64,000 nt of DNA from Phyllosticta citribraziliensis. Lineage: Eukaryota. Where the stretch lies: contig NW_027117343.1 in assembly GCF_038025025.1 (NCBI RefSeq), positions 186,001 to 250,000 on the forward strand, read 5' to 3'. Both the position numbers and the translations under genes were made by a program. The notes beneath the pieces were generated by a model. That model was not told the origin of the DNA and ran no database searches. It saw nothing but the letters and a program-made list of their open reading frames with translations. Shown in pieces: positions 1,040-57,248 of the stretch; the stretch's first letter is position 1; each line of letters starts with the position of its first letter.

Positions 1040-1450
1040 AATGTAGAGCGCCGGGCACTCCCGCCGTTCTGCAATATGTTTTGCGATGTGAGCCTGAAGG
1101 CTTGTAGACCCATGCGCAGACCCATGCGCAGTATGCTGTCGACCAGTTCGACAATCGTGGTAAAGGGCTGCGATGGCATGGCTCCGGACAGTTCAAGAAT
1201 ACCGCTGCGCTATACTCTTCGACATGGAAAAAGGGGGGTTTCCGTTGGATGCGGGAGTCGCCCTCGTAGACCATGTGGATGATGGCCCGCACCGCAGCAG
1301 GCTGTGCTGCGTGTAGGTCAATGCCGTTCGTGTCGACTACTTCGCCTTCTATCAGCAGCCATCAGGACAATGTTCGACGAAAAGGAAGGACTGGTTGCAA
1401 ACCGTGGCTCTATTCGCGGAGTCTAAAGCCTTGCAGAGAACGTCGTTCCG
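1040..1450 (-). pseudogene. Degenerate BTB/POZ gene relic (array locus 1)
   Basis: Minus strand reads ...NRATVCNQSFLF... then IDLHAAQPAAVRAIIHMVYEGD..PPFFHVEEYSAAVFLNCPE. This matches paralog motifs HKAIVCxQSxFF and IELHEADPAVVRAIVQFLY..LFHVxxYxAA. It has stops and frameshifts; boundaries are approximate. Confidence 0.6.
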
Positions 1451-2393
1451 AGAAGTTCTGAAAATAAACGATTGCTCCAGGAGGCCAGGTACGCTCTTCA
1501 TGAAAGGGAAAAGGCATATTGGTGGAGCTGACCGACCGACCTGAGAAAAGGCGCCTAGCCGGTTCCTCTGTTGACCAGGATGCACGCATGGCGCAGATCA
1601 ATGATCCTGGAAAGAGTTATTGCCCCCTGAACGACCAACGGCTCCGGTCAACGACCTTGCATCAACGACAGCTTAATTCACAGAATTTGCAGAGGCATGG
1701 GCCGTATGGCAAGCTTTCTGCCGCTGTTGAAAGCATGATAGGGGAGAATACGGTTTGGCCCTACAGTACTGGATGCAGAGTGAGTGGCTTGAAAGGGGTG
1801 CATGCGAGCGAGCATCTTTCGCTTCCTCCCGCGAGGCTTGCAGGGGGCTACCTAGCACCGGACTTCCGCGGAAAAGCCAAACCTCAACGTCAACGGGCAT
1901 GGCACAGTGGAGGCCGGACTCACGGACGCTAGGCACGGTCGAAGCAGCAAAAACAGCCACAGTGGGAGACAGAGGACGCGAGCGCAGTGATGAGGGCGTT
2001 GCTGATGGCGTGCACCGCGCTCGTGCGTGGTGGACTGACTGATGACGGACGAACTGCACACGACGCACCCGGTGGAGGAACTGCATCATAGCCGTTGGGG
2101 TGCGGGCGGATGTTGAGTGCGTGGAGATAGCGATGAGTCAATTCCGCGCGGGGAATAAGAAAACGCTCTGCTTGGAAGCTTGATCCCTGGGGAATTCCCT
2201 TGCCATTTCGAGGCGCCACCCGAATGTATTGTACGGGCTTTGCTGAACTCATAATCCAGACGTTCGACCTGGGCTCCTGTGCCTTACTTTGCTGTCCACC
2301 GTTCAATTCCAGAATGACTAATCTTTTTCCTCCTGTCAAACGGGCGAGAGGAGCTCCTGCCTGTTGCCATGCATCGTCGGAGCAAGCTAATAT

Positions 2394-3313
2394 TCATCTC
2401 TGCCTATGAATTTTGTCCCAATGTTCCCTATAGCTACTCCTATTGCAGATATCGCAGGTGAAGCTTGTGTCTTTCTGGTATGTCGTCACGTCCATGATTT
2501 TGAGGCTTTGGCAGTAGAAAATGGGGCACCAAAGTGTCACCACAGACGCAGATCCAGCGGCTGCGGGCGCTTTATGTTGCGCGTGCATGGCATGGACCAC
2601 GTCTTTGGCGAACGCGGGAACATCGCCCAGAGTATCGTTGAAAGCCGGGTCATCGACGATGTCATCCATCTTGCGCACCGCCGCGTCCACAATAACGTCG
2701 CGCAGACCGCGGTCCTGTTCAACAGTGCCTTCATAGATGCTCTTCACGGCGACGCGTAGCATGGGCAAGTGAAACATGCCGTCTGCGCCTTCTTTGAAAC
2801 GCGACACAGCGGCGTCCTTCAGGTTCGTTAGCTGGTACATCTCGGCCGCGGCGAATACGTTGATGCTGGCCATGAGCTCTTCATTTGGGTCTGGGCTTTT
2901 GGGGCAGACGCCGTGGTACATGTATTCGAGGATGGAGCGGACGACGGAAGGGCTGATATCTTGCAGTTCAATCGTGTTGGTGCGTGCTTCCTGTGTCGGT
3001 CCGCCGCTGGTCAGTGACTTGAATGAGTGCGGCGGCGCATGGGTGAGGCCGCGTAAGGAGGGAGCACGTGCCTTGAAGCCGTTGATGTCGTCAAAGGCGC
3101 GGGAGAAGTACTCGCTCTGTGTGCACACGACTGCTTTGTGTATGTGGAAGGTCTGATCACCGCAAACGATCTTCGCATCTGAGTAGCGGCCGGACTCGAG
3201 CAATCTGGGCGGGCAAGGTCAGTCAAACCGCCTTGTGGAGGGGCTGCTCCACATTCTGCTTACCCGCTGATAGACTGACGAACATGGCGATCTCCAGGAG
3301 TTGAAGACTCCAT
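2394..3313 (-). CDS. BTB/POZ protein with C-terminal zinc ribbon (locus 2), 3 exons
   Basis: Exon 1 3313-3264 (MESSTPGDRHVRQSISG), GT-AG intron 3263-3205, exon 2 LLESGRYSDAKIVCGDQTFHIHKAVVCTQSEYFSRAF..GFK, GC-AG intron 3071-2991, exon 3 to stop. C-terminus CPIFYC..CDIC..W. Confidence 0.9.
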
Positions 3314-4270
3314 GATGTTGATTTGGGATGGTGAGTGGATGGGGCAAGGGTGGGAGGTGACTGATGGACAGTGATGGGCAGTTGAAGAGGTGACGCGAGC
3401 CTGCGCTCTCTGCAGGTGCTTTTCCTTTGGCACGGTTGCGTGCTGCAACGACCAAAGAAAAGAGAGTGCCAATTTGGCGTTGGGCGCAGCGGGCGGTGCT
3501 TGTGCCGTGGGCGTTGGCTCCCCTGTCTCGTGCTGGCAGCGCCTGAGCTCGCTTGGTTTCTCTCGCGACCGAGACTACGCAACCTGAAGCGGAGTTGACT
3601 GCAAACAGAGAAAGGCAAACAACAAACACGATCTTTTTGGTAAATCTGCTCTGCACGAGAGGAAGCTCCCAGAACAGTGACAACGACCTTTTCGCTTTGT
3701 GCGCTCCTTTCTTACTGAAAAGAAGCCTTCAGAAAGTCATCCAGCCGATCCTCGGAACAGCCAAAAAACAGCAACAACAGCCCGCCCTATGCTCTGCAGC
3801 CTTTGTGTTTGGCGCTCCTCCATCCTTCTCCAAACTGTTGAATAAGGATGTGTTTGGCTGATGAGCTTTGGCGAGCGCGCCGCCCAAAACATCGACCCTG
3901 AAATCTGCTCCTCCATCATCGTTCAAAGCCCTAGCTGCTGTGAGCCTCAACGGAAAGGAAAAAACGTGGAGAACGCATACAGGGTATTGTAACGATCGAT
4001 CGGCTACCCCCTTAGTAACGGGAGTGTATTAATGCTCTTCCAGACAACAGTCGACTAAAGACAGCAAATCCGAGCCCGTAAAGGTTTTCTAATAGCAGGG
4101 GGGATGTCAGAACAAGCAACCTGCGCAACCATGCGCCTAGCCCGCAGAGTAGAATACCTTGAACCTGGGATTCTTAGCCCAGCAACTGATGGAGTCCCTC
4201 CACAGGTGAGTCGTGCGCAGCTAGTCCATAGTCCAGGCACGTCCGCGGTGCGCGCCATTAGCAACGGAAC

Positions 4271-4537
4271 TGTTGGTGGTCCTATATAACAACACCAAGC
4301 AGTCTCCTGTCACGTCATCTCAGCTACAGTTTACCTAGATAACTATAGCTTATCTAGATAATAACTTACTACTTTAGTTAAGATATACTTATCTATTAGC
4401 TTTACACATCTTAATAAGTTTAGGACTTATTAGTAGTTAGTACTAGCTACTACTCCCCCTAGCAGTTTTAGTAGTATATAGATAGCTCTTAAAGTAGCCT
4501 TAAATAGAGTCTTTAGTTCTCTTATCTTACTTTATCA
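4271..4537 (+). repeat. 5' LTR of copia copy A
   Basis: Begins TGTTGG and ends ATCA. Direct repeat of 9193-9459, 31396-31662 and 36318-36584. The first ~55 bp are not RIP-mutated. Confidence 0.95.
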
Positions 4538-7500
4538 GGTTATAAGCCCTTATATTATATATATAAATTACTTATCTAGCTTATTTTAGTATTATACTAT
4601 AATACTATCTATATAATTATTACTAATAGTTATTTTATTATTTTATTATTTTATCTTTTATTATCTTATATAATTCCTACTCTTTAGTAAATTTATTAGT
4701 ATTATCTATTTCTATAACTCTAAATAATATACTAATAGTTATTATTTTTATTATAACTTTACCTTCCCTTCCTCCCTTATTATCTAGTAGTTTAGGCTTT
4801 ACTACTACCTCATCTTCTATACTAGCTAAGTAGGCTAAGGCTAAAGAAGAGGTAGATCTAACTATAAATAATAGTAAGTTTAATATCCCTTTAAAGAATA
4901 TCTAGCTACTTAAAGGCCCTACTAACTAGGTAACCTTTAAGATAATAGTTAAGATAAGGCTTAGTCTATTCTATTATACCTATCTACTTAAGAATAAGCT
5001 AAAAAATACTACTAATTATAAGAAGGATATATATATTATCTACTAGTTTATAATAATTATTATACTTCCTATTATAATAGTACTATAGGGGTATACTAGT
5101 TTAGCTTACTCTATATAGTAGAAGCTTTATAATATATATAATACTAAGGGTATCTTCTCTAAGGCTAATATTATTAAGGACTTTATCTTCTATTAATATA
5201 GTAATTTTATAATAGTAAAGGAATTCTATAATACCCTATATAAATAAAGGTAAGCCTATATTAGCTATATCTAATAGTAAGTTAAGGACTAGATTCTCTA
5301 TATTCTACTTTTAGAAAACTTATAGGATAATATTCCTATCTAGTATATAACTTAGTATATAAATTAGTATAATAAGAAGGAGATACCTAAGTTTAAGGAT
5401 CTCTTCTATACTATAACTAATAAGATTAAATATACTAGTAAGAATAGTACTATAGCTCTTATTATTTATACTAGTTAGTAGTCTACTAAGTAGTCTAAGT
5501 CTAACTATACTACCTATAATTACTATAGAAAGAAGGGGTATATTAAGGCTAAGTATAGCTATTTTTACCTTAAATACTATCCTACCTATTAGAAGCTAGT
5601 ATTAGGGGTATTCTATATACTAGATAATTAAGTCTCTAAACTACTAATAGTAGTAATAGTAATAATAATATTAATAACTAACCCTCTAGTATAAGGTATA
5701 AACTACTTTACTACCCTATACCTATATCTAGCTTTAATAAAGGATAAATAGATTATTAATACTAGGGCTAATACCTACTATATACTAAATTTAACTAAGC
5801 TAATAAACTACTTATAGTTTATATAGCTAGTCTAGATATATAGTTTAGGTATAGTAATAGCTATTAGCTATAGTAATACTATACTCTACTATCCTATAAA
5901 TAGTATAGTTAATACTCTTATAATAGAGGGTATTCTATATATTCTAGTACTAATAGTTAGTCTTATCTTAGCTTTAAAACTTAAGTAGAAGGGACTATAC
6001 CTAGATTAGCTTATCTCTATATTATAAATATAAAACTATAGAATAGCTATTATAGCTTACTCTAATAGTTTAGGGGTAAATATTCTAATAGTTATTAATA
6101 ATAATTATATAGTATAAGTATTTACTATAGCAACTCCTCCTATAGTAATATATAAGATATAGTACTAGTAATTAGGGTATATCTATACTAGCGCGCTTAA
6201 TAAGCTCTAGTACTAGGGATAACTTATTATTACTAGTAACTAAGACTTCTATTATAAATCCTACTATATAGCTAAGTCCTACTAGATAGTATTATATAAA
6301 CTAATACCTTAAGTAGATATACCCTTTAGACGCGTCTATATTAATATATTTAGACTACTTATAGTTAGCTATAATAGCTACTATTAGGAGGTGGTATTTA
6401 TAGATAACTACTTATATCTATAATACTTATTAGTTATAAAGACTAAGGGCAACGCCTTTAATAGTATTTAAAACTTTAGTAAATAGACTAAAACCTAGTT
6501 CTAATATAAGATCTAAGCCCTCTAAATAGATAATAGCATAGAGTTTAGCGGCTAAAAGCTACTAGTATAGGTAAAGATAGAGGGTATTAAGGTTAAAAAG
6601 ATAGTACTATACTTATCTAAGTAAAATAGTATTAGTAAGTTATCTATATACCTTATTACTAATATAGCCTACTCTATAAGTATTATATTAAATATACCTT
6701 AATTATTATAGATAGAAGCCTATTAATATATAGTATATCTTCTTAACTATCTTCCTACTTATATACTTAATAGTAAGATACTAGTTAATATTTTTAATAA
6801 TACTATTAGTAGGTATAAGGATATCTAGTTACTAGTACTAGTCTTTAGTATTACTATATATACTTATATTCTAGCTAAGAAGCGTCTTAAGAGCGCTAAA
6901 TTTAATATAAGAGTAAAGAAAGGATAGTTTATTAGCTATAACTATAAGTATATCTTCTAGGTATATCTCCCTTAAATAAACTAGGTTATCTATACTTAGG
7001 ATATATATTTTAGACCTCCTTAGTAGCTAGACTTAATAGCTACTATAAATAATATAGAAGATAGAAAAGTTAAGAATAGTAATAATAAGATACTTATTAT
7101 ATATTTTATATTAAAAATAGTTTAAGATACTCTTAAAGGCAATACTAAAGTAATCTATAATATAGTAGAATAAGTAATTAAAGTAGTAGAGAGGTCTAAT
7201 ATAGGTAGTATAAATATTAGTAGTAGAGGTAAGGAGGATGTATTTATAGATATTATACTATTAATAGATAAAATAGATTAGATTAATATCTCTCTAGCTA
7301 ATAAATATACTAGATTTAATAATTTAGTACTTACTAATCTAACTTTAACTCTACTACTACCCTTACTATCTCTATTACCTATACCTACTCTATTACTAAT
7401 AGCACTATTATAATACCCTTAGTAGATTTATACTAAGATATAATTCTTTAATAAGAAATATAGTTTAGATAATACTTAACCTCCTTAATTATCTACTTAC

Positions 7501-9192
7501 TATATATATACCTTTACTACTATAGAAAATACTACTTATTACTAATAAGATACTATCTCTACTAATAAGGTTCTACCTTACTTATAGTATAAGGCCCTTA
7601 TAGGGCTAAAATCTATCTATTAGAGACCCTCTATAGATAAGTAGATATAGGAGTTAACTAATACTAGTACCTTTAAAGAGACTAACTATCTATTAGATAG
7701 CTCTTAGGTACTACTACTATAATAGGTCTAGGTCTATAAGCTTAATAAGCTAGGTAAGAAGGTTATCTATAAGAGCTATATTATAGTTTTAGGTAATCTT
7801 TAATATAAGGGATTTAATATATCTAAAGTATTATTATTAGTTATTATATTTCCTACTTTTATACTATTTTTAGTAATTAATATCTATTATTACCTATTTT
7901 ATAAGTAAGGGGATATTAAGATAGCCTTCCTTAATATACTACTAAAAGACCTAGTCTATACCTATATACCTCCTAGATACTAGGTCCTATAATAAGTTTA
8001 GCATCTCTAAAGAGCCTTATATAGCTTATACTAGTTACTACTTACTTAGTTTTAGTACCTCTATAATTTCTTATACTACCTAGGTTTCTACTCTCTCCCT
8101 TTAGAACCCTATATTATAAGATACTAGGATAAGCTTATATTTATCCTTATCTATATTAATAATCTCTATATTACTACTAAAACTAAGTCTAAAGTTAATA
8201 AAATTATCTTACTACTTAATACTAAGTTCTACTTTAAAGATATAGGCTAATTATATTACTTCCTTAGTCTTTATATTAATTAATATATAAATAGTATAAT
8301 TATACTATTCTAAGGTAGATATATTTAAAACGTTCTTATATAGTTTAGTATAAGTAATACTATATATATTCTTATACTAATAGATTCCTATAAATTACAC
8401 GCATATAATAGTAAGAACGACCTAGACTATTAATAGCTTTATAGTAAGATTATTAGCTTACTTATATAGTATATAATAAGATACTACCTAGCTATTCTTT
8501 TCCCTACTACTTATCTCTTATAATATACCTATAACCTATTAAATAAATACCTTACTACTACTTACTAAGTCCTTTAATACTTATAGGGTATATATAATTA
8601 TAGAATTATTCTATATCCTAGTAATAATAGCACTCTTAGCTTATAAATCTATATAGATACTACTTTTACTAATAATCTAGATACTTATTAGTCCTTATTA
8701 GGCTATATTATTATAGCTTTAGGTGGTTTACTATATATAAAGAGTAGGAGATAGAAGCTTATTAGTATATCTATAATAGAAGCTAAGTTTATTAACCTTA
8801 CTCTTACTATTAAATAAGCTATCTAGATAACTTAAGTTCTTATTAAAATAGGTTATAAGGGCCCTAATACTTAACTAATCTAGCTCTATAATAATAATAA
8901 GAACGCTATCTAATTTACTAATAGTATAGAGTTTAATACTACTATAAAATATATTAATCTATACTACTAGTATATTAAGTAGGTAGTTATAGATAGAACT
9001 ATAACTATCTCTTATATCTCTACTAATAAGATAATTATAGATAGGCTTACTAAAGTATTAGTAATAGTTAAGTACTACTACTTTTATAACCTTATTAGGT
9101 ATAGACTAATATAGTAAGTTTTCTATTTAGTTAATATAACTACTTATATATCTACTTTACTATAACTATCTCTTTTCTTATCCTAGGGGGTG

Positions 9193-9459
9193 TATTAGTA
9201 GTCCTATATAATAATACTAAGTAGTCTCCTATTATATCATCTTAGCTATAGTTTACCTAGATAACTATAGCTTATCTAGATAATAACTTACTACTTTAGT
9301 TAAGATATACTTATCTATTAGCTTTATATATCTTAATAAGTTTAGGACTTATTAGTAGTTAGCACTAGCTACTACTCCTCCTAGTAGTTTTAGTAGTATA
9401 TAGATAGCTCTTAGAGTAGCCTTAAATAGAGTCTTTAGTTCTCTTATCTTACTTTATTA
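9193..9459 (+). repeat. 3' LTR of copia copy A
   Basis: RIP-mutated copy (TATTAG...ATTA) of the 5' LTR, preceded by the TAGGGGGTG PPT. Confidence 0.95.
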
Positions 9460-12271
9460 GGAACTCCATCATCGCGTGCGCGTCCTCTACTTATATAATA
9501 TAACTAATGCTGCTCTAACTAATACTGCTCTATCTAGACCTGCCTGGCATTTATTAGTAACTCGTTTACATCGTTCCGCACTTTAGTAAAGGAGTTTACT
9601 GCTACCATTCTCCAACTCCTTCTTATATTCGTCGACTAAAAGAAGGCCGGCCAAGAAAGAGCGGCGGAGCAAGCCATTGTCTTTCTACGCAATTACGGTG
9701 GTGGTGGGACTATACTTCTCGGGCAACGGCTTCTAGGACGATAGTACCAGGAATATCCTTGCGAGCTTGAGGCCAATTCAAACCTCCCTTCGTCGCCGTC
9801 CGTGTTAGAAATCCTCACATCAGGCCTATGGCGTGTCTAGGTCATGATATCTCTTGCATGGGCTTACAGTTATCTCTTGCTTGCACGGAGAAAAATGATG
9901 TCATTGCATCTTTTCGAAAAGTGCCTCACCTCGCCGCCGCGCGTGTGACTCGCCTCCATTTCTCGCCAGTTCTCCACCGCAGTCCTTGCTCCAGCCCTGC
10001 TCCCAGTCCACCGTCCACAGACGGTAGCCCGGGGAAAAGTCAAGTCCAAACATTTTACGCCACACCCGACCAGGGCATTCTAGCATCGAGTCTCTATCCA
10101 ACCGAAAGCGCATAACTAGCAGCTCTCTAATCAAATCACTGCTGCGTCTCACTTCCGGCAACGCCCTGAGCTCCTCCAAAAATGCCGCATCTCACAGCTA
10201 ATGCGACGGACTATCCTATGGACTTACATTGAAAACAGCGTGCAGCTCCCCCGTACACTGGAACTCCTCCTACATGAGCTCCGCATCCGCACCGAGTCGG
10301 CCGCTCGCTGGAGCTGTCATTTGTAAACCACAATGGTAATCGGCTACTCGTATTATATTCTAATGCATTGCGTAGCAGTCCGTTGCGAATTATAGACTCC
10401 CCTATCCCAGGATTATGCCTCCAAACGCTGAGCTTTTTCAGACATCTCCACACGCCGGTTTCGAATCCTGGACGTCGGCGGATTCTCCCCCACAGTTCTG
10501 AATCGGGACTCTGCGCGATACTTCTACCGCTATCCACTTAGTATAGCAAACACCGACAGACTCGCGCTAATGCAAGCCGTGTAGCACTATATCGCTATCC
10601 CACTAACGCCGCCTATGAGCTGTCCACACTGCATCCATGCCTCGGGCTTTGCTAAGGCAATCGGCTCCTGAACCGACTATATTTTTAGAGAAGTAACGTC
10701 TCTTTTTAGGTTTCCTCCGTTCTAACGCACCGCCGATGATCCGATCTGCTTCTTGAAGGGGCGGGGTATCTCAGGTTATACCATATGGCGAATCAATCAC
10801 CTATGGCCGCTAACTATTTAAATCAGGTCTCCCATCAGGTCGTTCTACAGCTCGGCCTCTCTTCTTTACTTCCACCCCACCATTCTTTGATATCCGCTTC
10901 TTGTCTTTGTTTAGCTCCTGTTGCGGACCCTCGATGGCCTTACGGGAGACAATGGTATCCGTACAGGGGAGAGTCCCCTCGGTGAATCCACGGTTGTGCA
11001 CCGAGTATTTCAAGTTAAACTTCCATGAATATTGCGACTATTGCAATAAGGAAGACTTGGGTTGAGGGGTCCGGCCTGAAAGCTTGACATGCGTTAGTAT
11101 CCCACTTCGGCGTTGGTTTTAGGAGTCGACTAATTTTCTCAAGGTTTCTCGTGTCGTGTGGACCGAAAAAGAATGATGTCAGCAGTCAGGCCACGCCGGT
11201 TGTCCCACTGCATCCGCTTCTCTCGGAAGGATGCAACCCAACACTTGGTATTCAGGTTCGTGGATGGACGGCGCCTTCACCTGGATCATCAGAACGCATG
11301 TGGACGACCAATACTGTGGTACTCAAATATCTCCAAAGAAACGACGGTCGAAACAGACCACTGCATCATCAGCAGACTTTGGAAGGTCCAGCGCCCACCC
11401 AGTGTTCACACTGCAAGCCGACCAAGCGCGTTCACTTCTGAGAAGAAAACCAAGAATCCCGCTGCGATTCTTGCATGGAATATTGCAAAAGGAACAATGG
11501 TCGGGACAGACCGCTGCACTACGAGCAGAAGTTGCAGCATCAGGCTTCAATCCAGTAGCCGCAGTGCGCACGCTGCGACTCGATCAGGCGCGCCAAGCAG
11601 AGGAGCTGTCGAAACTCCGGGCCCGGCACGTAAATACTTGTGCTTCTTGGCCTTGCCCGTCTTCATGGTCGCTGCGATTTCCCGCTCTGTCTTCCACCAA
11701 TCCACTTGGACGAGTAACGTACCAGCGTTGCCACCTGGTTGTCGAGCTTATCGGTGAGCCTCACCTCGGCGGCGTTCTTGGTTCGCCGTAGAAACTCCCA
11801 CGAAGCGAAGTATCGCGTCCATGTTCGACTTGGAACCGCTCTGGCCAAGACTGCGTATCTTCAGCATTGCGTTCTGCGAACCCTGAGCCACGTCCTTCCC
11901 ACGGGGTATCCACACTGTGCCCGGCATGCGAATATGCACGGTTCCAATCCCAAATTGCTCAAAGATTGCTGGGCTCGAACGTTCCTCCGGCCGCCCTACG
12001 CCCTGTCTCGTCCATTTGGGTATAGCGCGAATGACAAACGGCAGTTCGTGGCAAAGCCTTGCCTAGGGGACAAGCACCGGTGGTTGAATGTTCGATCTCC
12101 AGTTCGGGATTGATCTGGACCCACCAGGTCGACTCGCCACTCCCGGCGTCTTCAGCTGCCGATGCTGCCGTTGTCTCCTCTTCATTCCGTACGGTTGCTC
12201 GTCGGTGGTGAAGACTCGCTGCTGCTTCAGGGGTCTGTCTCGACCGTTATGCTACCGCCGGTAGCCGTCGT

Positions 12272-30676: not shown

Positions 30677-31395
30677 AGCTAATATCACTAGACTCTATAT
30701 AGGGAGTTGGCACCTTATACTAGAAGTAGAAGGAAAGGCTTATATATACTAGAAGGCTTATATATTATCTCCTATATTTATTTTAATTTAATTAATAGAA
30801 CTAATATATATAGCATTTCTTAGTATCTTTATATACGTTTTTAAGGCAAGTAGTCAATCTTATAGCTATATATAAGGTATAAGTGCTGTCTAGTAAGATA
30901 GAAGAGTAGATAGGCACTGCTATTTTATTCTTAAAGCACGACTTTTAGGTATATTTATACTAAAGAGACCTTAAGGTAAAGATTTATTAAAGAAAATTAT
31001 ACTACCTAGTACTATAGCTGTATTTAGGGAGGATTTTTTACTACTATATTTACCCCTTTTCTATAGTTATACCTTAGGAGCTATTCTTTACTACCCTAAC
31101 TATACTTAGCTTATACTACTTTTAGACGTATAGCGTGCTAATTTAGGCCTAGAGCTAGTAACTATAAGGTATAAATATTTACCTATACTTGCTTATATTT
31201 CCTAATTAGGCAGTATATTATTACTTTATACTATTATATTATCTAGATTTCTTACCCTATACTAAATAATCCTCTTCTATAAAATTACAGTCTCTCTACT
31301 ATATTTATATTAGAAGTCTGCTTATAAATTACCTTAACTAGGCGGGTATAAGATGGCACCTCTATAGCTATTAGGCAGTATAAGGCATAGCTCTC

Positions 31396-31662
31396 TATTA
31401 GTAGTCCTATATAATAATACTAAGTAGTCTCCTATTATATTATCTTAGCTATAGTTTACCTAGATAACTATAGCTTATCTAGATAATAACTTGCTACTTT
31501 AGTTAAGATATACTTATCTATTAGCTTTATATATCTTAATAAGTTTAGGACTTATTAGTAGTTAGTACTAGCTACTACTTCCCCTAGTAGTTTTAGTAGT
31601 ATATAGATAGCTCTTAGAGTAGCCTTAAATAGAGTCTTTAGTTCTCTTATCTTACTTTATTA
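31396..31662 (+). repeat. 5' LTR of copia copy B
   Basis: 267-bp direct repeat followed by the GGTTATAAGCCC PBS-like site. Confidence 0.95.
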
Positions 31663-34600
31663 GGTTATAAGCCCTTATATTATATATATAAATTACTTAT
31701 CTAGCTTATTTTAGTATTATACTATAATACTATCTATATAATTATTACTAATAGTTATTTTATTATTTTATTATTTTATCTCTTATTATCTTATATAATT
31801 CCTACTCTTTAGTAAATTTATTAGTATTATCTATCTCTATAACTCTAAGTAATATACTAATAGTTATTATTTTTACTATAACTTTACCTTCCCTTCCTCC
31901 CTTATTATCTAGTAGTTTAGGCTTTACTGCTGCCTTATCTTCTATACTAGCTAAGTAGGCTAAGGCTAAAGAAGAGGTAGACCTAATTATAAATAATAGT
32001 AAGTTTAGTATCTCTTTAAAGAATATCTAGCTACTTAAAGGCCCTACTAACTAGGTAACCTTTAAGATAATAGTTAAGATAAGGCTTAGTCTATTCTATT
32101 ATACCTATCTACTTAAGGATAAGCTAAAAAATACTACTAATTATAAGAAGGATATATATATTATCTACTAGTTTATAATAATTATTATGCTTCCTATTAT
32201 AATAGTACTATAGGGGTATACTAGTTTAGCTTACTCTATATAGTAGAAGCTTTATAATATATATAATACTAAGGGTATCTTCTTTAAGGCTAATATTATT
32301 AAGGACTTTATCTTCTATTAATATAGTAATTTTATAATAGTAAAGGAATTCTATAATACTCTATATAAATAAAGGTAAGCCTATATTAGCTATATCTAAT
32401 AGTAAGTTAAGGACTAGATTCTCTATATTCTACTCTTAGAAAACTTATAGGATAATATTCCTATCTAGTATATAACTTAGTATATAAATTAGTATAATAA
32501 GAAGAAGATACCTAAGTTTAAGGATCTCTTCTATACTATAACTAATAAGATTAAATATACTAGTAAGAATAGTATTATAGCTCTTACTATTTATACTAGT
32601 TAGTAGTCTACTAAGTAGTCTAAGTCTAACTGTACTACCTATAATTACTATAGAAAGAAGGGGTATATTAAGGCTAAGTATAGCTATCTTTACCTTAAAT
32701 ACTATCCTACCTATTAGAAGCTAGTATTAGGGGTATTCTATATACTAGATAATTAAGTCTCTAAACTACTAATAGTAGTAATAGTAATAATAATATTAAT
32801 AACTAACCCTCTAGTATAAGGTATAAACTACTTTACTACCCTACACCTATATCTAGCTTTAATAAAGGATGAATAGATTGTTAATACTAGGGCTAATACC
32901 TACTATATACTAAATTTAACTAAGCTAATAAACTACTTATAGTTTATATAGCTAGTCTAGGTATGTAGTTTAGGTATAGTAATAGCTATTAGCTATAGTA
33001 ATACTATACTCTACTATTCTATAAATAGTATAGTTAATACTCTTATAATAGAGGGTATTCTATATATTTTAGTACTAATAGTTAGTCTTATCTTAGCTTT
33101 AAAACTTAAGTAGAAGGGACTATACCTAGATTAGCTTACCTCTATATTATAAATATAAAACTATAGAATAGCTATTATAGCTTGCCCTAATAGTTTAGGG
33201 GTAAATATTCTAATAGTTATTAATAATAATTATATAGTATAAGTATTTACTATAGTAACTCCTCCTATAGTAATATATAAGATATAGTACTAGTAATTAG
33301 GGTATATCTATACTGGTATACTTAATAAGCTCTAGTACTAGGGATAACTTATTATTACTAGTAACTAAGACTTCTATTATAAATCCTACTATATAGCTAA
33401 GTCCTACTAGATAGTATTATATAAACTAATACCTTAAGTAGATGCACCCTTTAGATACATCTATATTAATATATTTAGACTACTTATAGTTAGCTATAAT
33501 AGCTGCTATTAGGGAGTAGTATTTATAGATAACTACTTATATCTATAATACTTATTAGTTATAAAGACTAAGGGCGACGCCTTTAATAGTATTTAAAACT
33601 TTAGTAAATAGACTAAAACCTAGTTCTAATATAAGATCTAAGCCCTCTAAATAGATAATAGTATAGAGTTTAGTGGCTAAAAGCTACTAGTATAGGTAAA
33701 GATAGAGGGTATTAAGGTTAAAAAGATAGTACTATACTTACCTAAGTAAAATAGTATTAGTAAGTTATCTATATACCTTATTACTAGTATAGCCTACTCT
33801 ATAAGTATTGTGTTAAATATACCTTAATTATTATAGATAGAAGCCTATTAATATATAGTATATCTTCTTAACTATCTTCCTACTTATATACTTAATAGTA
33901 AGATACTAGTTAATATTTTTAATAATACTATTAGTAGGTATAAGGATATCTAGTTACTAGTACTAGTCTTTAGTATTACTATATATACTTATATCCTAGC
34001 TAAGAAGCGTCTTAAGAGCGCTAAATTTAATATAAGAGTAGAGAAAGGATAGTTTATTAGCTATAACTATAAGTATATCTTCTAGGTATATCTCCCTTAA
34101 ATAAACTAGGTTATCTATACTTAGGATGTATATTTTAGACCTCCTTAGTAGCTAGACTTAATAGCTACTATAAATAATATAGAAGATAGAAAAGTTAAGA
34201 ATAGTAATAATAAGATACTTATTATATATCTTATATTAAAAACAGTTTAAGATACTCTTAAAGGCAATACTAAAGTAATCTATAATATAGTAGAATAAGT
34301 AATTAAAGTAGTAGAGAGGTCTAATATAGGTAGTATAAATATTAGTAGTAGAGGTAAGGAGGATATATTTATAGATATTATACTATTAGTAGATAAAATA
34401 GATTAGATTAATATCTCTCTAGCTAATAAATATACTAGATCTAATAATTTAGTACTTACTAATCTAACTTTAACCCTACTACTACCCTTACTATCTCTAT
34501 TACCTATACCTACTCTACTACTAATAGTACTATTATAATACCCTTAGTAGATTTATACTAAGATATAATTCTTTAATAAGAAATATAGTTTAGATAATAC

Positions 34601-36317
34601 TTAACCTCCTTAACTATCTACTTACTATATATATACCTTTACTACTATAGAAAATACTACTTATTACTAATAAGACACCATCCCTACTAATAAGGTTCTA
34701 CCTTACTTATAGTATAAGGCCCTTATAGGGCTAAAATCTATCTATTAGAGACCCTTTATAGATAAGTAGATATAGGAGTTAACTAATACTAGTACCTTTA
34801 AAGAGACTAACTACTTATTAGATAGCTCTTAAGTACTACTACTATAATAGGTCTAGGTCTATAAGCTTAATAAGCTAGGTAAGAAGGTTATCTATAAGAG
34901 CTATATTATAGTTTTAGGTAATCTTTAATATAAGGGATTTAATATATCTAAAGTATTATTACTAGTTATTATATTTCCTACTTTTATACTATTTTTAGTA
35001 ATTAACATCTATTATTACCTATTTTATAAGTAAGGGGATATTAAGATAGCCTTCCTTAATATACTACTAAAAGACCTAGTCTATACCTATATACCTCCTA
35101 GATACCAGGTCCTATAATAAGTTTAGCATCTCTAAAGAGCCTTATATAGCTTATACTAGTTACTACTTACTTAGTTTTAGTACCTCTATAATTTCTTATA
35201 CTACCTAGGTTTCTACTCTCTCCCTTTAGAACCCTATATTATAAGATACTAGGATAAGCTTATATTTATCCTTATCTATATTAATAATCTCTATATTACT
35301 ACTAAAACTAAGTCTAAAGTTAATAAAATTATCTTACTACTTAATACTAAGTTCTACTTTAAAGATATAGGCTAACTATATTACTTCCTTAGTCTTTATA
35401 TTAATTAATATATAAATAGTATAATTATACTATTCTAAGGTAGATATATTTAAAATATTCTTATATAGTTTAGTATAAGTAATGCTGCATGTATCCTTAT
35501 ACTAATAGATTTCTATAAATTATATATATATAATAGTAAGAATAACCTAGACTATTAATAGCTTTATAGTAAGATTATTAGCTTACTTATATAGTATATA
35601 ATAAGATACTACCTAGCTATTCTTTTCCCTACTACTTATCTCTTATAATACACCTATAACCTATTAAATAAATACCTTACTACTGCTTACTAAGTCCTTT
35701 AATACTTATAGGGTATATATAATTATAGAATTATTCTATACCCTAGTAATAATAGCACTCTTAGCTTATAAATCTATATAGATGCTACTTTTACTAATAA
35801 TCTAGATACTTATTAGTCCTTATTAGGCTATATTATTATAGCTTTAGGCGGCTTACTATATATAAAGAGTAGGAGATAGAAGCTTATTAGTATATCTATA
35901 ATAGAAGCTAAGTTTATTAACCTTACTCCTACTATTAAATAAGCTATCTAGATAACTTAAGTTCTTACTAAAATAGGTTATAAGGGCCTTAATACTTAAC
36001 TAATCTAGCTCTATAATAATAATAAAAATGCCATCTAATTTACTAATAGTATAGAGTTTAATGCTACTATAAAATATATTAATCTGTACTACTAGTATAT
36101 TAAGTAGGTAGTTATAGATAGAACTATAACTATCTCTTATATCTCTACTAATAAGATGATTGCAGATGGGCTTATTAAAGTATTAGTAATAGTTAAGTAC
36201 TACTACTTTTATAACCTTATTAGGTATAGACTAATATAGTAAGTTTTCTATTTAGTTAATATAACTACTTATATATTTACTCTACTATAACTATCTCTTT
36301 TCTTATCCTAGGGGGTG

Positions 36318-36584
36318 TATTAGTAGTCCTATATAATAATACTAAGTAGTCTCCTATTATATTATCTTAGCTGTAGTTTGCCTGGATAACTGTAGCTTAT
36401 CTAGATAATGACTTGCTGCTTTAGTTAAGATATGCTTATCTATTAGCTTTGTGCGTCTTAATGAGTTTAGGACTTATTAGTAGTTGGTACTGGCTACTGC
36501 TCCCCCTGGCGGTTTTAGCAGTATATAGATAGCTCTTAGAGTAGCCTTGAATGGAGTCTTTAGTTCTCTCATCTTACTTCGTCA
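36318..36584 (+). repeat. 3' LTR of copia copy B (distal part only lightly RIPed)
   Basis: 267-bp direct repeat ending TTCGTCA. Retains TG/CG dinucleotides that are lost in the other LTR copies. Confidence 0.95.
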
Positions 36585-50301: not shown

Positions 50302-50833
50302 GCTCGCGGGCAGTTTCTCGTTCGGCAGGGTCGGAGTTTGCGATTTGGGCGCTTCGGCAGGGCAAATGTGCCGGGCTCTTGGAGGAGTCCTTCGATTGTT
50401 CATATTCCTGGCTTCAAAAATACATCAGTTAATTGCACCTTTTCGTTTGGGGCTAGATACCTGAGCTCACCGTAGGACTGACGAATGCGCCTGATTGTAG
50501 CAAAAAGAGGCTCGTAGAGGGCGTCGAAGTGTTTGCTCCCAAACGATGGGCAGGGACGGCGAAGGGACGGCGAAGTTGGCCGCACTAGCTGGTCTTCGGA
50601 GCCGTTTTGTGCGCTGAGTCGCTGCAAGCATGTCGCTGCAAGCATGTCGCTGAGCCGACAGCTGGGTCCAGTCCTGGGCGGTCTCGGTGGCAGTCTTGTT
50701 GTGCCGGTGGTCGTGCCGTGGCGGCGGCAGTCGCGCTGTAGGTGGCGCCTTGGAAAGGTTCGCGTCAAAATCTCGTTGCGCCCACGCTCCATCTTCACAC
50801 AACCTCCTTCGCCCCACAGTAACGACCGCTGCC

Positions 50834-51967
50834 ATGGCGGACGACGACGACAAGCTTGGTCCGCTCAAGACCGGCTTGAGCGAGTAAGTTCCCTCAAACT
50901 TTCCTCCAAGATCTCTGTTGACGATCATCAGCCTACTCGAATCCGGCCTCTTTTCCGACCTCAAGATTTGTTGTCGCGACGGCACTGTCTACAACGTGCA
51001 CAAGAATATCCTTTGCGCTCAGAGTCTGTTCTTCAAGAATGCGCTCAATCCCTCCAGCAATTTCTTGGTAAGTCCACTTGAAGCTCAGTGCTTTCTTGGC
51101 TTCGCTGCTTGTGGTCTTCCAACAACTCACTGCCCTGTTCACTCTTTCAAAAGCTAATGCCCTCCTCTAGGAAGCCCGATCCAACACCATCAAGCTTGAA
51201 AACGACGACCCAGCGGCTGTGAAAGCTCTCGTCGAATACTTCTATCGCTTTAAATACACGACCTTGACGTAAGCGAAGATCAGCTTCTGATCTTCCATGC
51301 ACACGTCTTTGCTATTGGAGAGACATATCGCAAACCAGGTCTTAAAGACCTCGCCATACTTCGCTTTAAAGCCACCTTCATGGACGCCAAGTGCCTGAAA
51401 GACCTGGATTTTCCGAACGCTGTGAAGACGGTTTACAGAACTACCGTGGAAAGCGACAAAGGATTGCGCAATTTGGTCGTCGCTCTCACATATGCCTTCA
51501 TTCGCACATTCACGAAAAAGAAGGCTTTTCTGAGTATGATGGCGGAAGTCGGAGAGTTCAGCAAAGATCTCACCCTGGGAATCATCTCGTTGGGCGATGC
51601 AGATATGAGGTGGCTTTGCAAGCATTGTGAGCGGGAAGTTGAGATGGACCTTCCAATTGCAGCGAAGGACGCCTATTGTCCGTCCTGTGGGAAGGGGTCT
51701 AGGAAGTCCGCTTGGTTTGGCAAGGCCAAAAGCCACTGGACCGGTGTTGCAGAATACGACTGCCCTAATTGCAGAAGTATCGTGTGGATGGACCTGGAAA
51801 CCGATCTCCAGCCATCAGGTGATCCTCCTCAGACTTTTGCGCCTTGCTGCGGCGTTCCTCAAGCCAACGAAAAGTGGCAGCGTTCGAAAATCGAGGTCAA
51901 TTACAGCGACGAAGACGAAGCACCAAGCAGGGAGCCGAGCAGCACTTCGGATGAGGACCAAGTCTGA
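50834..51967 (+). pseudogene. BTB/POZ gene with tandem zinc ribbons and a 1-nt deletion near 51258 (locus 14)
   Basis: MADDDDKLGPLKTGLSD | LLESGLFSDLKICCRDGTVYNVHK.. | EARSNTIKL..YFYRFKYT, then a frameshift before DLDVSEDQLLIFHAHVFAIGETY. C-terminus CKHC..CPSC..W..CPNC..PCC..W plus an acidic tail. Confidence 0.8.
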
Positions 51968-52289
51968 GGCGAACATAGCCAGAATTTGTCTGTGGCGATT
52001 CGCCGACTGTAGTTGCATTCTGGTCCTGCGCCGAAGCTTCCGGTGGCACACGGCGCCTGGATAGATCCCCTTCCATAGTGAAATTAGACTTCACTTGAGA
52101 CCAGCTCTATGGGTGCATTTCTGTCACCTGTTGTGTACTGCCAATATCGAACAAGTTAGGCCGGCCCGCGTGCAACTTGACCGATTGTTTGCGCTTGCCC
52201 GCACGCCGCCAAAAAAGTGAATAAAGGCAGACATCTCGACCGCCCGCGCTCCATCCTTCTACAACCTCAACACACCGACCTCCAGCGCG

Positions 52290-53578
52290 ATGGCGATCGA
52301 CAGCGACCAGCCCTCTCTGCTCAAGAGCGGCCTCAGCCAGTAATTTTCCGAAGATAAACTCTCCCTAATATCTCTCTGACCTTCTCTCGGTAGGCTGCTT
52401 GAGTCCGGCTACTTCTCAGACCTTCAGATCTCATGCAATGACGGCACGGTGTACAACGTCCACAAGAGCATCCTGTGTGCTCAAAGTGCATTCTTCATGA
52501 ACGCCCTCAATCCTGACAGCAACTTCAAGGTTAGAGGCGCTTGGTGGACTTTTCTCTCGGGCTTGCTTGAAGACTCTGGGTGTTTCGCTTGCTCGCCAAC
52601 ACGCTTGCTCGCCAACACGCTTGCTCGCCAACACGCTTGCTCGGAGTCTCCATGACCTCTGCCTGCCGACCTTACTCACCTGAATGTCCTGCCTTCCTTC
52701 TTCGTCGCACGCTCTTAGTTCTTTCTCTGCCCCGCCGAAAAACACCTTCCCCCACAGTCACTTGTCACTGCAGACCCAATTCTAACTTCTTATCACAGGA
52801 GGCTCAGACCAACAAGGTCCCGCTGGAACACCATGAGCCGTTTGCAGTCAAGGCTCTTATTGAGTACTTCTATCGATTCGAGTACACCGAGATCGACGCC
52901 CCGATCAACGAAACTCTGCTGTTTCACGTGCACATCTACGCCATTGGCGAGACCTACGACGTAAAAGGCTTGAAGAAGCTGGCCTGCGACCGATTTGAAG
53001 CCATCGTTGCAAACAAATCCTTCAGAGAGCTTGACCTGCCTTCCGCCATCAAGGCCATTTACAACACGACCGTCGAAATCGACAAGGGCTTGCGCGGAAA
53101 GGCCATTGCTATTGCTAGAGCCGACATCAAAGCTGTCATGGAGTCGAAAGAATTCTCAGAGATGATGGATGAATGCGCGCAGTTCAGCAAGGACTTGGCT
53201 CGCTCGTTGGTCGAGGATCCCCTCACTGCGCCTTGGTACAAATGTACAGGCTGTTGTGTTGCTATTCGAATGGAACTTCCAGATGGCACTAAGAGAATCC
53301 ATTGTCCACGCTGCCCTAGGTCCTTCACTAGAGAGGTTTGGGTGGGCTCAATGGCGGCGTCCAATTTGTCGCGTCTGTGCAGGTACAGTTGCCCGCAGTG
53401 CAAAACGATCATTGCAATGGATATCCTCTCCGTTGGATCTATTGGTCCCCAGACTTACTGCCCTTGCTGCGGAATTCCTCGTCAAAACACAAGCTGGCAG
53501 AACAACAAGGTGCTTAGCGAGAGCGAGGGTGACGAGGAGGAACATGACGAAGAGGAGGAAGGCGAAGACGAATACTGA
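52290..53578 (+). CDS. BTB/POZ protein with tandem zinc ribbons and acidic tail (locus 15), 3 exons
   Basis: MAIDSDQPSLLKSGLSQ | LLESGYFSDLQISCNDGTVYNVHKSILCAQSAFF..NFK | ~270-nt intron | EAQTNKVPL..CTGC..CPRC..W..CPQC..CPCC..W..EEEEGEDEY. Confidence 0.9.
52586..52643 (+). repeat. 16-bp tandem repeat x3.6 (CGCTTGCTCGCCAACA) in intron 2 of locus 15
   Basis: Read directly from the sequence. Confidence 0.9.
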
Positions 53579-54752
53579 GGTACGGTTCAATGGAAATTGA
53601 GAATCAAAATGGCGCTACCCCTCACGAATGGAGCTTCTCAAAGGCCCGAGGGTTGGTAGCGAAAGTCATGGCATACACAGTTTCCTAATCACTGCACTCA
53701 TGGGCGCTTGAATGCTCCCTATCACCGCTCTCTCAGACTCCTAAATGATCCTGAGCACATGCTCTAGTCCAGAGCGGCTTGAATGCTCCCAGTCAGGTGT
53801 CTATTAGAGTCAATGGATAATCCCTGAGGGCGAGACTGATTCCCTGCTCGTGTTGTGTCCCACGAATTTTGTCACCAAGTCTCATTCCAAGTCTGTTGTT
53901 CTGCCCCTCCTGCGCATCACGAGTATTCCCAATTTCTCTGTACAAAGTTTCAGCTGTCCATATTTCCTGTATGATCACTCAATGACACGCCAATTCCTTT
54001 TGTCCACATGGCACGCCGGTCTTCAGTGCGTAGCGGCGATATGCGGCGCGCCGCAAAGGTACATGTAGGTAATTGTGCAAACTTGGGTGCTATCGACTTG
54101 CTGCTCGAGGTTCACAAGTAGCGATTCGTAGCACTTGCCGTTCACCACGCACCGTGGGCCGAAGCCAGATAAAACCCTTCGCCCTCCACCTTCGGCGCCG
54201 CCCTTCTGACAACCCTCAACCTCTCCATCCTCAACCTTTTCATCCTCAACCGCCATCCTGTACCTCTTCATTGTTTGAATCCATCCTCAACAACCCACCG
54301 CGCTGCTGGCCACCGAAATTGACGCCATCAGCACTCCATTATCTAACCATCTCCTCGCGCCGATCAAATATACCTCACCTTGCACCTTTGCTCTCGCCTC
54401 CAGGTCGCCCAAGACGCCCATGATCTGCGGCTGCCAGCTCAGCATCATCTTCACCTGAACATCGGTGATCTGCCGCTAGTTGCCGAGTGTAGCTCCTAAG
54501 CCCGTCGCAGACAAACGTCGACTCTGAAGTCTAAGGCTACTCGACCAGCTCACATTCGAGAGCGTTTTCACTCCTTCGGCAAACATACGGCAAGGCTTAG
54601 AGCCATTCCTTCATCATCCTTCGAGGAACATTGGACGATTGACGTCTTTGTTTCGACCGTGGTGCACCAATCGGTCGGCTTCAGCGACACGTTGAGATCC
54701 CGAGCATGAATCGAACCTAGCCTTCAACAACCACGGTATCTCGTTCTTCATC

Positions 54753-55773
54753 ATGGATGACGGAACAAAGGCTGGTCTTTCCGCTTTTGGCGAGTGAGTA
54801 CCACCTTTTTTGCCCACCAAATCAATCACTGACCCATTGCAAGCCTACTTGATTCCGGCCTTTTCTCCGATCTCGAAGTCCTCACTGGCGATGGAACAAA
54901 GTACAATGTGCACAAGGCGATTCTTTGCGCTCAAAGCTCGTTCTTCCGGAATGCTCTCAGCCTCCAAAGCGGCTTCTTGGTATGTTTTATGTTCCGGACA
55001 ACTGGACCAAAGGTGAAGCTAATTTTAAGCGATAGGAAGCAAGAACCAACGTCATCAGGCTTGAAAAAGATGAACCCGCTGTGGTGAGAGCTCTTCTTGA
55101 GTACTGCTATCGGTTCAACTACGAGCATAATGTCGAGGAACTCAACGACGCGTTCCATTTCCACATATGCGTCTATGCCCTTGGAGAAACCAGCTGCGTG
55201 CAAGGCTTGAAGGACCGAGCCAAGGAGCGGGTTGAATTCTTCGAGTGGGCCCATTACGACTTAGAGCAACTGGACTTTACACTTGCGGTGAAGACCATCT
55301 ACAACACAACGAAGGCCAGCGATAGAGGCCTCCGCGACCTTGCTGTCCGAATGACCCGAAGGTCATTTGATCAGGCCATGGAACTGGACGGATTTCAAGA
55401 AATGATGGGCGAAGTTGGCCAATTCTCAAAGGACCTCTGCCACTCGTTGCAAAAGGATCTCAAAGCATTTGAAGATGCGCCCAGGTACAGCTGTCAGGGT
55501 TGCCGCTCTTACATCCGCATGGAACTTCAACCTGAGAACGACTTGTCAATGTTCTATTGTCCTTACTGCAAGTTCCTCAACTTGGCCTCTGAGTGGGAAC
55601 TTGGCAAGTCAAAATACCCTGGAAAGCTACCAACGTACAAATGCCCCGACTGCAATAAACGAGTTGCAATGGATCTTTGCGCAGGTGGTCGCAAGGCGAA
55701 AACATCGTGCTATCACTGCGCGACTTCTCTCACGAATGAGAAATGGAAGTGCCGTGAGTCAAAGTGCGACTGA
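54753..55773 (+). CDS. BTB/POZ protein with tandem zinc ribbons (locus 16), 3 exons
   Basis: MDDGTKAGLSAFGD | LLDSGLFSDLEVLTGDGTKYNVHKAILCAQSSFF..GFL | EARTNVIRLEKDEPAVVRALLEYCY..CQGC..CPYC..W..CPDC..CYHC..W. Confidence 0.9.
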
Positions 55774-56156
55774 TCGGCCAGCCCTGATCGCTGAGATGAC
55801 GAGGGTGGCCACCAATGGCTGCTTTGAAATATTCAAACCGACCAGTCAGACGAGGGGAGGATCGTTTGAATGGTGATTTTCAAAAGAAACTTTGACGACT
55901 GCCTGGGGAGGGAAGTTTTGAAATGCTTCTTATTTCAAGTTTAAGATCTCCCCTGCGCACTTCTACAACCGCCATGAGTCTTTCAGCCCTTGAATTCCAG
56001 ACCGATAGAGATTTAGGTACAAAAACAGCTGCCGTCGCAACCAAAATCAGCCAGGAAACCCTAAGTCCAACAGTCACCATATCACGCACTCGTCGACGAA
56101 AATATCCAAAAGTGGCTCACCGTCAACCGCCTAGTCATCTTGACTGTGGAGGACAC

Positions 56157-57215
56157 CTATGGCTCATAATCCTCCTCTACTAATTCATTCCCTTCCCAAA
56201 CCCGATTCCTCCTTGGAGCTCCGCACAGATAGCAAGTAGTCTCGCTCAATAGACCCCCCGGGCAAAGCTCTAGACGGTTGACCCCCCCACAAACATCACA
56301 GGCGTACTCCTTCAGTGGTGCGTGCAAAGTCGAAGTCACCCTGTAAGCCTGCCACATCTCGCTGTCTTGAATCTCTCCACAAATGGGACAGTAGAATTCA
56401 TCGTCTTCCTCGAGGGGAAAGTCCACAAACATGGTAGCGGTGCACCACCGGCAGGTGTATCGAGGGAGGGACTTGAGCTGGTGGAGCTCGCTCGTGGAGG
56501 AATCCGACAAGTCTCTGAAAAATTGCGTGATATCCTCCAGCTCGTCCTCGAAGCCCTCAGTGTTTCTTGCCTCGTCGATTCGGTCTCTTGTGAGCTGGAC
56601 GACAACGTCGCGTAGGCCCCTGTCGCTGTGGACTGTGGACGCGTAGATTTCCTGGACAAGCCGGGGAAAGTTGATCTCGTCGAAACTCAATGGATGCAAG
56701 GCATCAATGAAGTGTTGTTTCGCTGCATCCTTGAGGCCTGGTACGCGAAACGTTTCCCCGGCAGCATATACGAGTATGTGGAAGAGCAGCTTGCTGTGGT
56801 CGTCATCCATGTCCTCATCGCTGTAATCCAACCTATAGAAATAATTGACAACCGCTTCAATGACGTTCGGGGGCTCGTCTTTAAGTTCGACGACGCCGTT
56901 TCGTAACTCCTACCGCCAAACGTCAGCGCCACCTTTTGCAAAACGCGTTGCTGACCGGAGTGTTTGCGTACTGTGTAGTTTCTGGCTGGATTCAGCATGC
57001 GTTCAAAGTACTCGCTCTGCAAACAGAGTATGATCTTGTGGACCAACCATTCGCTCCCATCGCGATCACGAATCCGAAAGTCAGAGTGAGAACCGTTAGC
57101 TAGGTAGCTTGCAAATTGTTAGCAAAAGACGCTGTTGAAGACGGTCGTTTGGTTGAGTTTACTCGTAGAGATTGCCCTGAGCCTGGAGCACAGGCAGCAC
57201 CGGGCGATTTGCCAT
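56157..57215 (-). CDS. BTB/POZ protein with tandem zinc ribbons (locus 17), 3 exons
   Basis: MANRPVLPVLQAQGNLYD | YLANGSHSDFRIRDRDGSEWLVHKIILCLQSEYF..NYT | ELRNGVVELKDEPPNVIEAVVNYFY..CRWC..CPIC..W..CDVC..CYLC..W. Confidence 0.9.
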
Positions 57216-57248
57216 GGCAAAATGAGAAATGTCCACACTAGCAGAAGA

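Follow-up and report, generated by a model that had tools for sequence, protein, structure and literature searches.

A stretch of 64,000 nucleotides from the citrus-leaf fungus Phyllosticta citribraziliensis (contig NW_027117343.1, positions 186,001 to 250,000 of the forward strand; hereafter the window) carries 17 BTB loci. We consider it reasonably probable that these form an old tandem array of a single Ascomycota family whose proteins are substrate adaptors of Cul3 ubiquitin ligases, with C-terminal zinc ribbons choosing the substrates. BTB adaptors decide what Cul3 ligases degrade, and filamentous ascomycetes contain many BTB genes that are annotated merely as "BTB domain-containing protein". 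In their full form the array proteins consist of an N-terminal helix and BTB domain, a short SPOP-type BACK/3-box with the motif D-R-G-L-R-D, and one or two C-terminal four-Cys zinc ribbons. The duplications predate the radiation of the genus Phyllosticta and no duplicate is young; since then the array has mostly lost genes, through a one-base deletion, nonsense mutations, loss of the ribbon, and damage beside a retrotransposon altered by repeat-induced point mutation (RIP).

The extent of the array was established with a family profile, iterated from the open reading frame (ORF) at 2394-3218 (-) and applied to the full set of 1475 six-frame ORFs in the window that reach 25 amino acids. This recovered 17 separate BTB loci on both strands, from 969-1361 (-) to 56157-57215 (-), numbered L1 to L17, the same count of paralogs in 56 kb that had been proposed from the sequence alone. 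E-values of the individual pieces ranged from 7e-93 to 5e-9, and no further profile match was found at E<=1 among the 1475 ORFs. Of the 115 ORFs with 120 amino acids or more, 9, belonging to 8 loci, scored above the cut-off for Pfam BTB (PF00651). The window contains spliceosomal introns, and its G+C content is about 53%, falling to about 25% in two blocks. One locus encodes a protein with 100% identity to one known from P. citribraziliensis. Eight loci retain the full architecture (L2, L3, L8, L9, L11, L15, L16, and L17), three have an open frame without a ribbon (L5, L12, and L13), and six are dead or relics, five of them with stops or frameshifts in conserved exons (L4, L6, L7, L10, and L14) and the sixth a degenerate relic (L1). 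The sequence-only reading had called about half of the copies dead; many indeed are, but the fraction is 6 of 17, about a third, with the three ribbon-less copies still open. The loci are as follows.

L1, 969..1361, minus strand: degenerate relic matching profile positions 59-109 (E 4.6e-9); of the BTB domain only the latter half can be recognized, and helical core and ribbon are lacking.
L2, 2394..3313, minus strand: intact, 259 amino acids, one ribbon; Pfam BTB E 2e-19.
L3, 17841..18706, plus strand: intact, 248 amino acids, one ribbon; letter-for-letter identical to public protein P0007; predicted local distance difference test (pLDDT) score of its AlphaFold2 (AF2) model 93.8.
L4, 19156..19522, plus strand: pseudogene; 5' half gone and the rest frameshifted (two profile pieces in different frames).
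L5, 19891..20645, plus strand: open frame of 206 amino acids with BTB and helical core, ending ahead of the ribbon; identical to public protein P0035.
L6, 20855..21340, plus strand: pseudogene lacking exons 1-2, with three in-frame stops and a ribbon remnant; sister in the tree to P. citrichinensis P0053.
L7, 25344..26058, plus strand: pseudogene with a stop within the first BTB exon and no ribbon; profile E 4.9e-27.
L8, 26583..27461, plus strand: intact, 252 amino acids, one ribbon; closest homolog P. capitalensis P0032, 56% identity.
L9, 28352..29239, plus strand: intact, 259 amino acids, one ribbon; closest homolog P. capitalensis P0046, 52% identity.
L10, 29797..30526, plus strand: pseudogene with several in-frame stops and Tyr at the positions of the L9 ribbon Cys.
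L11, 36551..37445, plus strand: open frame, one ribbon; P. citrichinensis ortholog P0009 88% identical.
L12, 38318..39119, plus strand: very divergent (profile E 3e-16); three exons and both introns readable and open; lacks the F-x-E triad and the ribbon.
L13, 40612..41737, minus strand: BTB, helical core, and a non-ribbon tail, 339 amino acids as read; transcribed; orthologs P0174/P0031 79-86% identical.
L14, 50834..51967, plus strand: two-ribbon gene broken by a one-base deletion near 51258; transcribed and spliced.
L15, 52290..53578, plus strand: intact, 321 amino acids, two ribbons and an acidic tail; intron 2 of 269 nt; closest homologs in P. citricarpa, P. paracitricarpa, and P. citriasiana, 60-62% identical.
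L16, 54753..55773, plus strand: intact, 304 amino acids, two ribbons; pLDDT of the two-ribbon model 88.9.
L17, 56157..57215, minus strand: intact, 313 amino acids, two ribbons.

Introns were placed by coordinates in 12 near-full-length loci, and L12 was read by eye, giving 13 gene models. In all 13, intron 1 is in phase 2 directly before L-[LF]-x-S-G, and intron 2 is in phase 0 after G/N-F/Y-x, which bears out the intron positions and phases described in the sequence-only reading. Because these introns are shared, the copies arose by tandem duplication at the DNA level, and the origin proposed there is confirmed. Runs X2 and X3, from two studies, were treated as RNA-like on account of spliced GT..AG joints, neither being recorded as RNA, and their contigs are spliced exactly at the predicted introns 1 and 2 of L13 and L14. 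No such contigs cover 53976-57300, where L16 and L17 lie, a gap that carries no information on expression.

The gene models differ in detail. Intron 2 of L2 (2991-3071, -) has a GC donor rather than GT, and because its 81 nt are in frame and stop-free, the L2 frame is open whether or not this intron is spliced. In L11 the N-terminus is doubtful: predicted exon 1 overlaps the end of a retrotransposon long terminal repeat (LTR) at 36579, and the public model P0008 begins further in, at a Met close to 36628. The sole contig over L12 is unspliced and of low depth and likewise carries no information on expression. Three tandem copies of a 16-nt unit (about 52560-52620, +) add to the 269 nt of intron 2 in L15; the other copies have a second intron of 49-103 nt. 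The public models of L15, L16, and L17 (P0030, P0005, and P0023) lose the ribbons wholly or in part, either to a late intron or because their end is altered. Read without interruption, the frames hold two complete ribbons each, like the proteins of congeners, and these reconstructions would correct several public gene models.

Divergence among the copies is deep. Window paralogs share 23-41% protein identity, and the youngest pairs of duplicates reach about 46% in protein and about 52-57% in DNA, a level at which paralog DNA is saturated. We placed them in a FastTree phylogeny of 130 rows, leaving out proteins longer than 345 or shorter than 170 amino acids, the window's own database copies, and near-identical cluster members. 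Fourteen of the 17 loci fall into two clades, one holding L2-L6 and L8-L11 (nine loci, 20 rows, support 90) and the other L13-L17 (five loci, 13 rows, support 98). All 33 rows, including all 19 from outside the window, are Phyllosticta, with counterparts from P. capitalensis, P. citrichinensis, P. citricarpa, P. paracitricarpa, and P. citriasiana. In the tree most loci pair with a congener protein; L1, L7, and L12, on long branches, are left unplaced. The array is thus a tandem, lineage-specific expansion, with 17 loci in 56 kb and 14 of them in clades restricted to the genus.

Accession numbers suggest that the gene order has also been kept, with collinear orthologs in four other species. On one contig of P. 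citrichinensis they run ...883 (L16-like), 885, 890 (L13), 892 (L11), 893 (L10 clade), and 896 (L5/L6 clade), and on one contig of P. capitalensis ...887 (L2-like), 889, 891 (L8), 892 (L9), 894 (L10 clade), 895 (L11 clade), and 904 (two-ribbon), so that the congener counterparts are apparently collinear with the window. The low paralog identity, the lack of a RIP signature within the loci, the Phyllosticta-only clades, and the counterparts in window gene order together date the duplications to before the genus. Since the copies are old and their counterparts are shared across the genus, turnover has been slow and consists mostly of loss. The rapid birth-and-death turnover proposed from the sequence alone is therefore not borne out, given that even the youngest duplicates are only about 46% identical and that 14 of the 17 loci group with congeners whose accessions follow the order of the window.

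Beyond the genus, an exhaustive profile search returned 8924 cluster representatives at E<=1e-3, a number that falls to 3334 at 1e-10 and to 88 at 1e-30. Among the best 150 representatives, 53 have the strict ribbon-plus-Trp pattern and 89 a looser four-Cys pattern. Named members occur in Dothideomycetes, Sordariomycetes, Eurotiomycetes, and Arthoniomycetes, in the genera Aspergillus, Fusarium, Coniochaeta, Exserohilum, Venturia, Cryoendolithus, Zalerion, Alyxoria, Meristemomyces, and Aplosporella. Several are annotated with two to four family units per protein, which suggests either neighboring copies elsewhere or genuine multi-unit proteins. A metagenome scan gave 325 pattern matches and no relative.

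The predicted fold is that of a Cul3 adaptor. The AF2 model of L3, built from a 71-sequence alignment, has an N-terminal helix across the exon 1/2 junction, a BTB fold, four helices at 139-201 that include D-R-G-L-R-D, and a small beta ribbon. Its best Foldseek match is the BTB-BACK region of SPOP (4j8z; E 1.4e-7, template modeling score by target 0.71, 190 columns). Next come KLHL11, alone or together with Cul3, and KBTBD2/4, these matches spanning E 1e-7 to 1e-5. The family profile matches SPOP residues 191-358 at E 4e-14, and Pfam BACK_BPM_SPOP is present among Atlas structural neighbors. In the profile alignment, a family triad f-k-E aligns to M-E-E at SPOP 233-235. PMC3597819 reports that SPOP Met233 and the corresponding KLHL11 Phe130 enter a pocket of Cul3, that KLHL11 Ser131 and Glu132 bond Cul3, and that high-affinity Cul3 binding requires the 3-box. 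This hydrophobic-x-acidic triad, in the alpha3-beta4 loop, reads F/Y-x-E in 11 of the 13 modeled loci and F-x-D in L13 and is missing from L12; intron 2 falls between its x and E. With these matches and the aligned triad, the BTB and helical core of Cul3-adaptor type recognized earlier stands. By virtue of fold and contact motif, a Cul3-adaptor role is well supported as a prediction for the array proteins. A homodimer prediction for L3 (score 0.02, mark 0.32) weighs neither way.

The tail behind this core consists of one or two 45-residue modules with the pattern CxxC...CxxC-x8-W, the Trp following the second Cys pair. An alignment of 71 family members is fully conserved at two of the Cys and almost so at the other two. 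In the two-ribbon group the first Trp and three Cys never vary, and the second Trp and another three Cys hardly do. Models of the tail are confident (pLDDT 88-97, with the L16 two-ribbon unit at 88.9). Identity among paralogs is 0.17 in the tail versus 0.38 in the BTB domain. The tail had been described as highly divergent, which is true of its sequence but not of its fold; alignment and models point to a conserved scaffold with variable surface residues. Comparison with the closest congener homologs, region by region, gave the following identities.

L15: BTB 0.82, helical 0.67, ribbons 0.31 and 0.43.
L8: BTB 0.74, helical 0.59, ribbon 0.17.
L9: BTB 0.64, helical 0.45, ribbon 0.29.
L16: BTB 0.57, helical 0.59, ribbons 0.42 and 0.50.
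L11 (versus P. citrichinensis): BTB 0.83, helical 0.89, ribbon 0.88.

In four of the six closest-homolog pairs that have ribbons, conservation of the ribbon is below half that of the BTB domain; four pairs show ribbon identities of 0.17-0.43 against 0.57-0.82 for BTB. Overall, the BTB domains of closest congener homologs are 57-92% identical. These values agree with the earlier view of the ribbon as the least conserved part of the proteins. A neighboring P450 is 74% identical to a Logan protein (probably P. capitalensis) and 65% identical to a P. citriasiana homolog, which indicates that the BTB domains evolve at about the pace of a neighboring gene and the ribbons faster. At the nucleotide level, a related organism B (run X4) differs by 7.1% over L13 and 6.4% over the L15-L16 stretch, with 3.0% over an MFS neighbor and 10-13% over the P450 neighbor.

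The losses can be followed in individual copies. At the lesion site of L14 the RNA-like contigs are the same as the window, with zero differences, and organism B has one extra base behind 51258 that keeps the frame of L14. The deletion is therefore real and recent, and L14 is a pseudogene that is still transcribed and spliced. The AT-rich blocks of the window represent a single element of about 5.2 kb in two copies, which match at 97% over 5185 bp.

LTR retrotransposon copy 1, 4270..9461, unstranded: RIP-saturated; terminal repeats of about 265 bp.
LTR retrotransposon copy 2, 31395..36579, unstranded: RIP-saturated; between L10 and L11.

Both copies have a TpA/ApT ratio of 1.7-1.85 and a (CpA+TpG)/(ApC+GpT) ratio of about 0.05. 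A RIP-type composition continues into the flank of about 800 bp 3' of L10 (30601-31394), up to element copy 2, and effects of RIP or the element near the array are limited to this flank and the 5' end of L11. L10, with Tyr in place of ribbon Cys, lies next to this flank, and one of the losses in the array involves such RIP spill-over from the element. The RIP signature was found in none of the 17 BTB loci. RIP as a source of paralog divergence was rejected, all 17 having normal RIP indices.

Other features lie in and around the array. Just downstream of L13, an open frame of 558 codons at 39434-41107 (-) with FG-type repeats partly overlaps the L13 tail in another frame. A short motif in it presumably resembles the end of the Nup98/Nup116 GLEBS region, and the C-terminal part of the frame is conserved in P. 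citrichinensis (P0174). In the public model P0027, L13 is joined to this frame via an intron; the RNA-like contigs of both runs are unspliced over 40034-41447. A small gene at 49052-50640 (+), with introns at 50012-50065 and 50161-50213 and no Pfam match, has the deepest RNA-like contigs of the stretch examined, at a depth of about 25,000 in X2 and 1,781 in X3. Two long open frames, 22044-23729 (-; 562 codons), located within the array between L6 and L7, and 58424-60028 (+; 535 codons), match no Pfam family at E<=1e-3. Over 37301-57300, run X1, labeled a surface metagenome, yielded low-depth DNA contigs of which 44 of 54 are at least 99% like the window, and the X1 sample therefore contains the same species.

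DNA-level tandem duplication built the array before the genus radiated, with mostly loss since. In the mechanism we favor, the BTB domain, the F/Y-x-E triad, and the 3-box would dock on Cul3, the BTB region would probably dimerize, and the ribbons, as the fastest-changing part, would select substrates for ubiquitylation. Several points weigh against this account. Some proteins with BTB domains do not bind Cul3. No significant structural relative emerged for the ribbon fold (best Foldseek E 0.05, Rpb9; best VIA Z 4.8, the NZF of Vps36), which hence gives no clue to a ligand. The L11 pair shows no gradient between BTB domain and ribbon. The phylogeny was built with FastTree only, with three loci unplaced, and collinearity was read from accession order, not coordinates; some "ortholog" pairs may be paralogs left by differential loss.

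Judged from the alignments, faster change of the ribbons would fit relaxed constraint or diversifying selection alike. Relaxed constraint would suffice if the copies were largely redundant adaptors in which ribbon divergence and pseudogenes reflect weak selection and slow decay, a genomic drift of the kind proposed for plant F-box genes (PMC3030570). We regard this as possible, though doubtful. The record since the genus arose is indeed one of loss only, with a one-base deletion in L14 that organism B lacks, stop codons within L6, L7, and L10, and the disappearance of the ribbon from L5, L12, and L13, and the broken L14 is still transcribed and spliced. However, eight full-length frames have stayed open despite divergence to 23-41% identity, with the four Cys and Trp kept throughout, and together with the 57-92% identity of the BTB domains between congeners this implies purifying selection on the fold. 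A departure from ligase function altogether, in which BTB-mediated oligomers would carry ribbons that bind nucleic acid or chromatin, like animal BTB-zinc-finger regulators, seems unlikely to us. Zinc ribbons occur widely in proteins of transcription and of the ribosome, the top structural rows for the ribbon, weak as they are, belong to Rpb9 and ribosomal ribbons, and BTB-zinc-finger chains are among the PDB profile matches. Yet none of these ribbon matches is significant, the closest matches in sequence and in fold are BACK-bearing Cul3 adaptors and not BTB-zinc-finger proteins, and the Cul3-contact triad is conserved. In addition, no C2H2 or DNA-binding Pfam family matched the window ORFs, where zinc-ribbon matches were sub-threshold only.

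Diversifying selection is the basis of the surveillance role offered in the sequence-only reading, a Cul3-based array whose ribbons would be under such selection to recognize mycovirus, transposon, meiotic-driver, or non-self proteins. This is speculation, and we hold it to be improbable, to about the same degree as the nucleic acid-binding alternative. It would account for ribbons being the least conserved part between species, for a lineage-specific expansion with two Phyllosticta-only clades, for six dead loci out of 17, and for an array set among RIP-mutated retrotransposons, and it draws on an analogy with the MATH-BTB expansions of nematodes and grasses. The age and apparent collinearity of the array in congeners weaken it: there are no young duplicates, and the most distant of the sampled congeners retains counterparts of most loci, seemingly in unchanged order. 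The BTB loci differ from organism B at 6-7% of nucleotides and the neighbors at 3-13%, and a small four-Cys zinc module can diverge this fast under relaxed constraint alone. A stronger version, by the same analogy, would make the ribbons hypervariable modules for recognition, within a Cul3 adaptor array that is present throughout the genus and tags foreign or selfish proteins for degradation, and we give it still less credence. If it were true, the array would be a fungal counterpart of the adaptor-based surveillance proposed in nematodes and plants, and the Ascomycota family, with more than 3000 representative clusters, an unrecognized branch of fungal innate immunity.

For an old array of predicted Cul3 substrate adaptors, the value of the locus lies in its architecture and its copies. 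Our literature searches found no description of an Ascomycota BTB-BACK-zinc-ribbon architecture or of this array, which defines a large undescribed architecture in which an SPOP-like BTB-BACK core is followed C-terminally by one or two zinc ribbons. Copies with one ribbon, two ribbons, or none, together with the dead ones, form a compact natural series with counterparts in six sequenced species, through which the drivers of fungal adaptor expansions become directly testable.

Among known systems, the MATH-BTB proteins SPOP and plant BPM count among the nearest. Like the array proteins they have a BTB domain followed by a short BACK/3-box, they provide the best match in both fold and sequence, and their F/M-x-E Cul3-contact triad is aligned with that of the array family. 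They differ in carrying a MATH domain, for which no Pfam match was found in the window ORFs; the array proteins begin about 16 residues before the BTB domain, and their presumed recognition module is C-terminal, in the form of one or two 45-residue zinc ribbons. BTB-BACK-Kelch proteins (KLHL11, KBTBD2, KBTBD4, and KEAP1), also among the top structural matches, resemble the array in having a BTB domain and a helical extension that packs against Cul3, but the BACK region of the array is much shorter, with four helices, and is not followed by a Kelch propeller. BTB-zinc-finger transcription factors carry an array of C2H2 fingers, whereas the tails here are four-Cys ribbons.

As an expansion, the array has parallels in other lineages. 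Nematode MATH-BTB genes have reportedly undergone tandem, lineage-specific expansion (in a paper by Thomas), and PMC4091423 describes the same for grass MATH-BTB genes. Those families turn over rapidly, whereas the Phyllosticta array is old and apparently collinear over the genus. In Agaricomycetes, according to PMC10282164, expansions of BTB/POZ, F-box, and RING genes represent ubiquitin-ligase specificity factors; these are likewise fungal, but as reported there they are genome-wide family counts in mushrooms.

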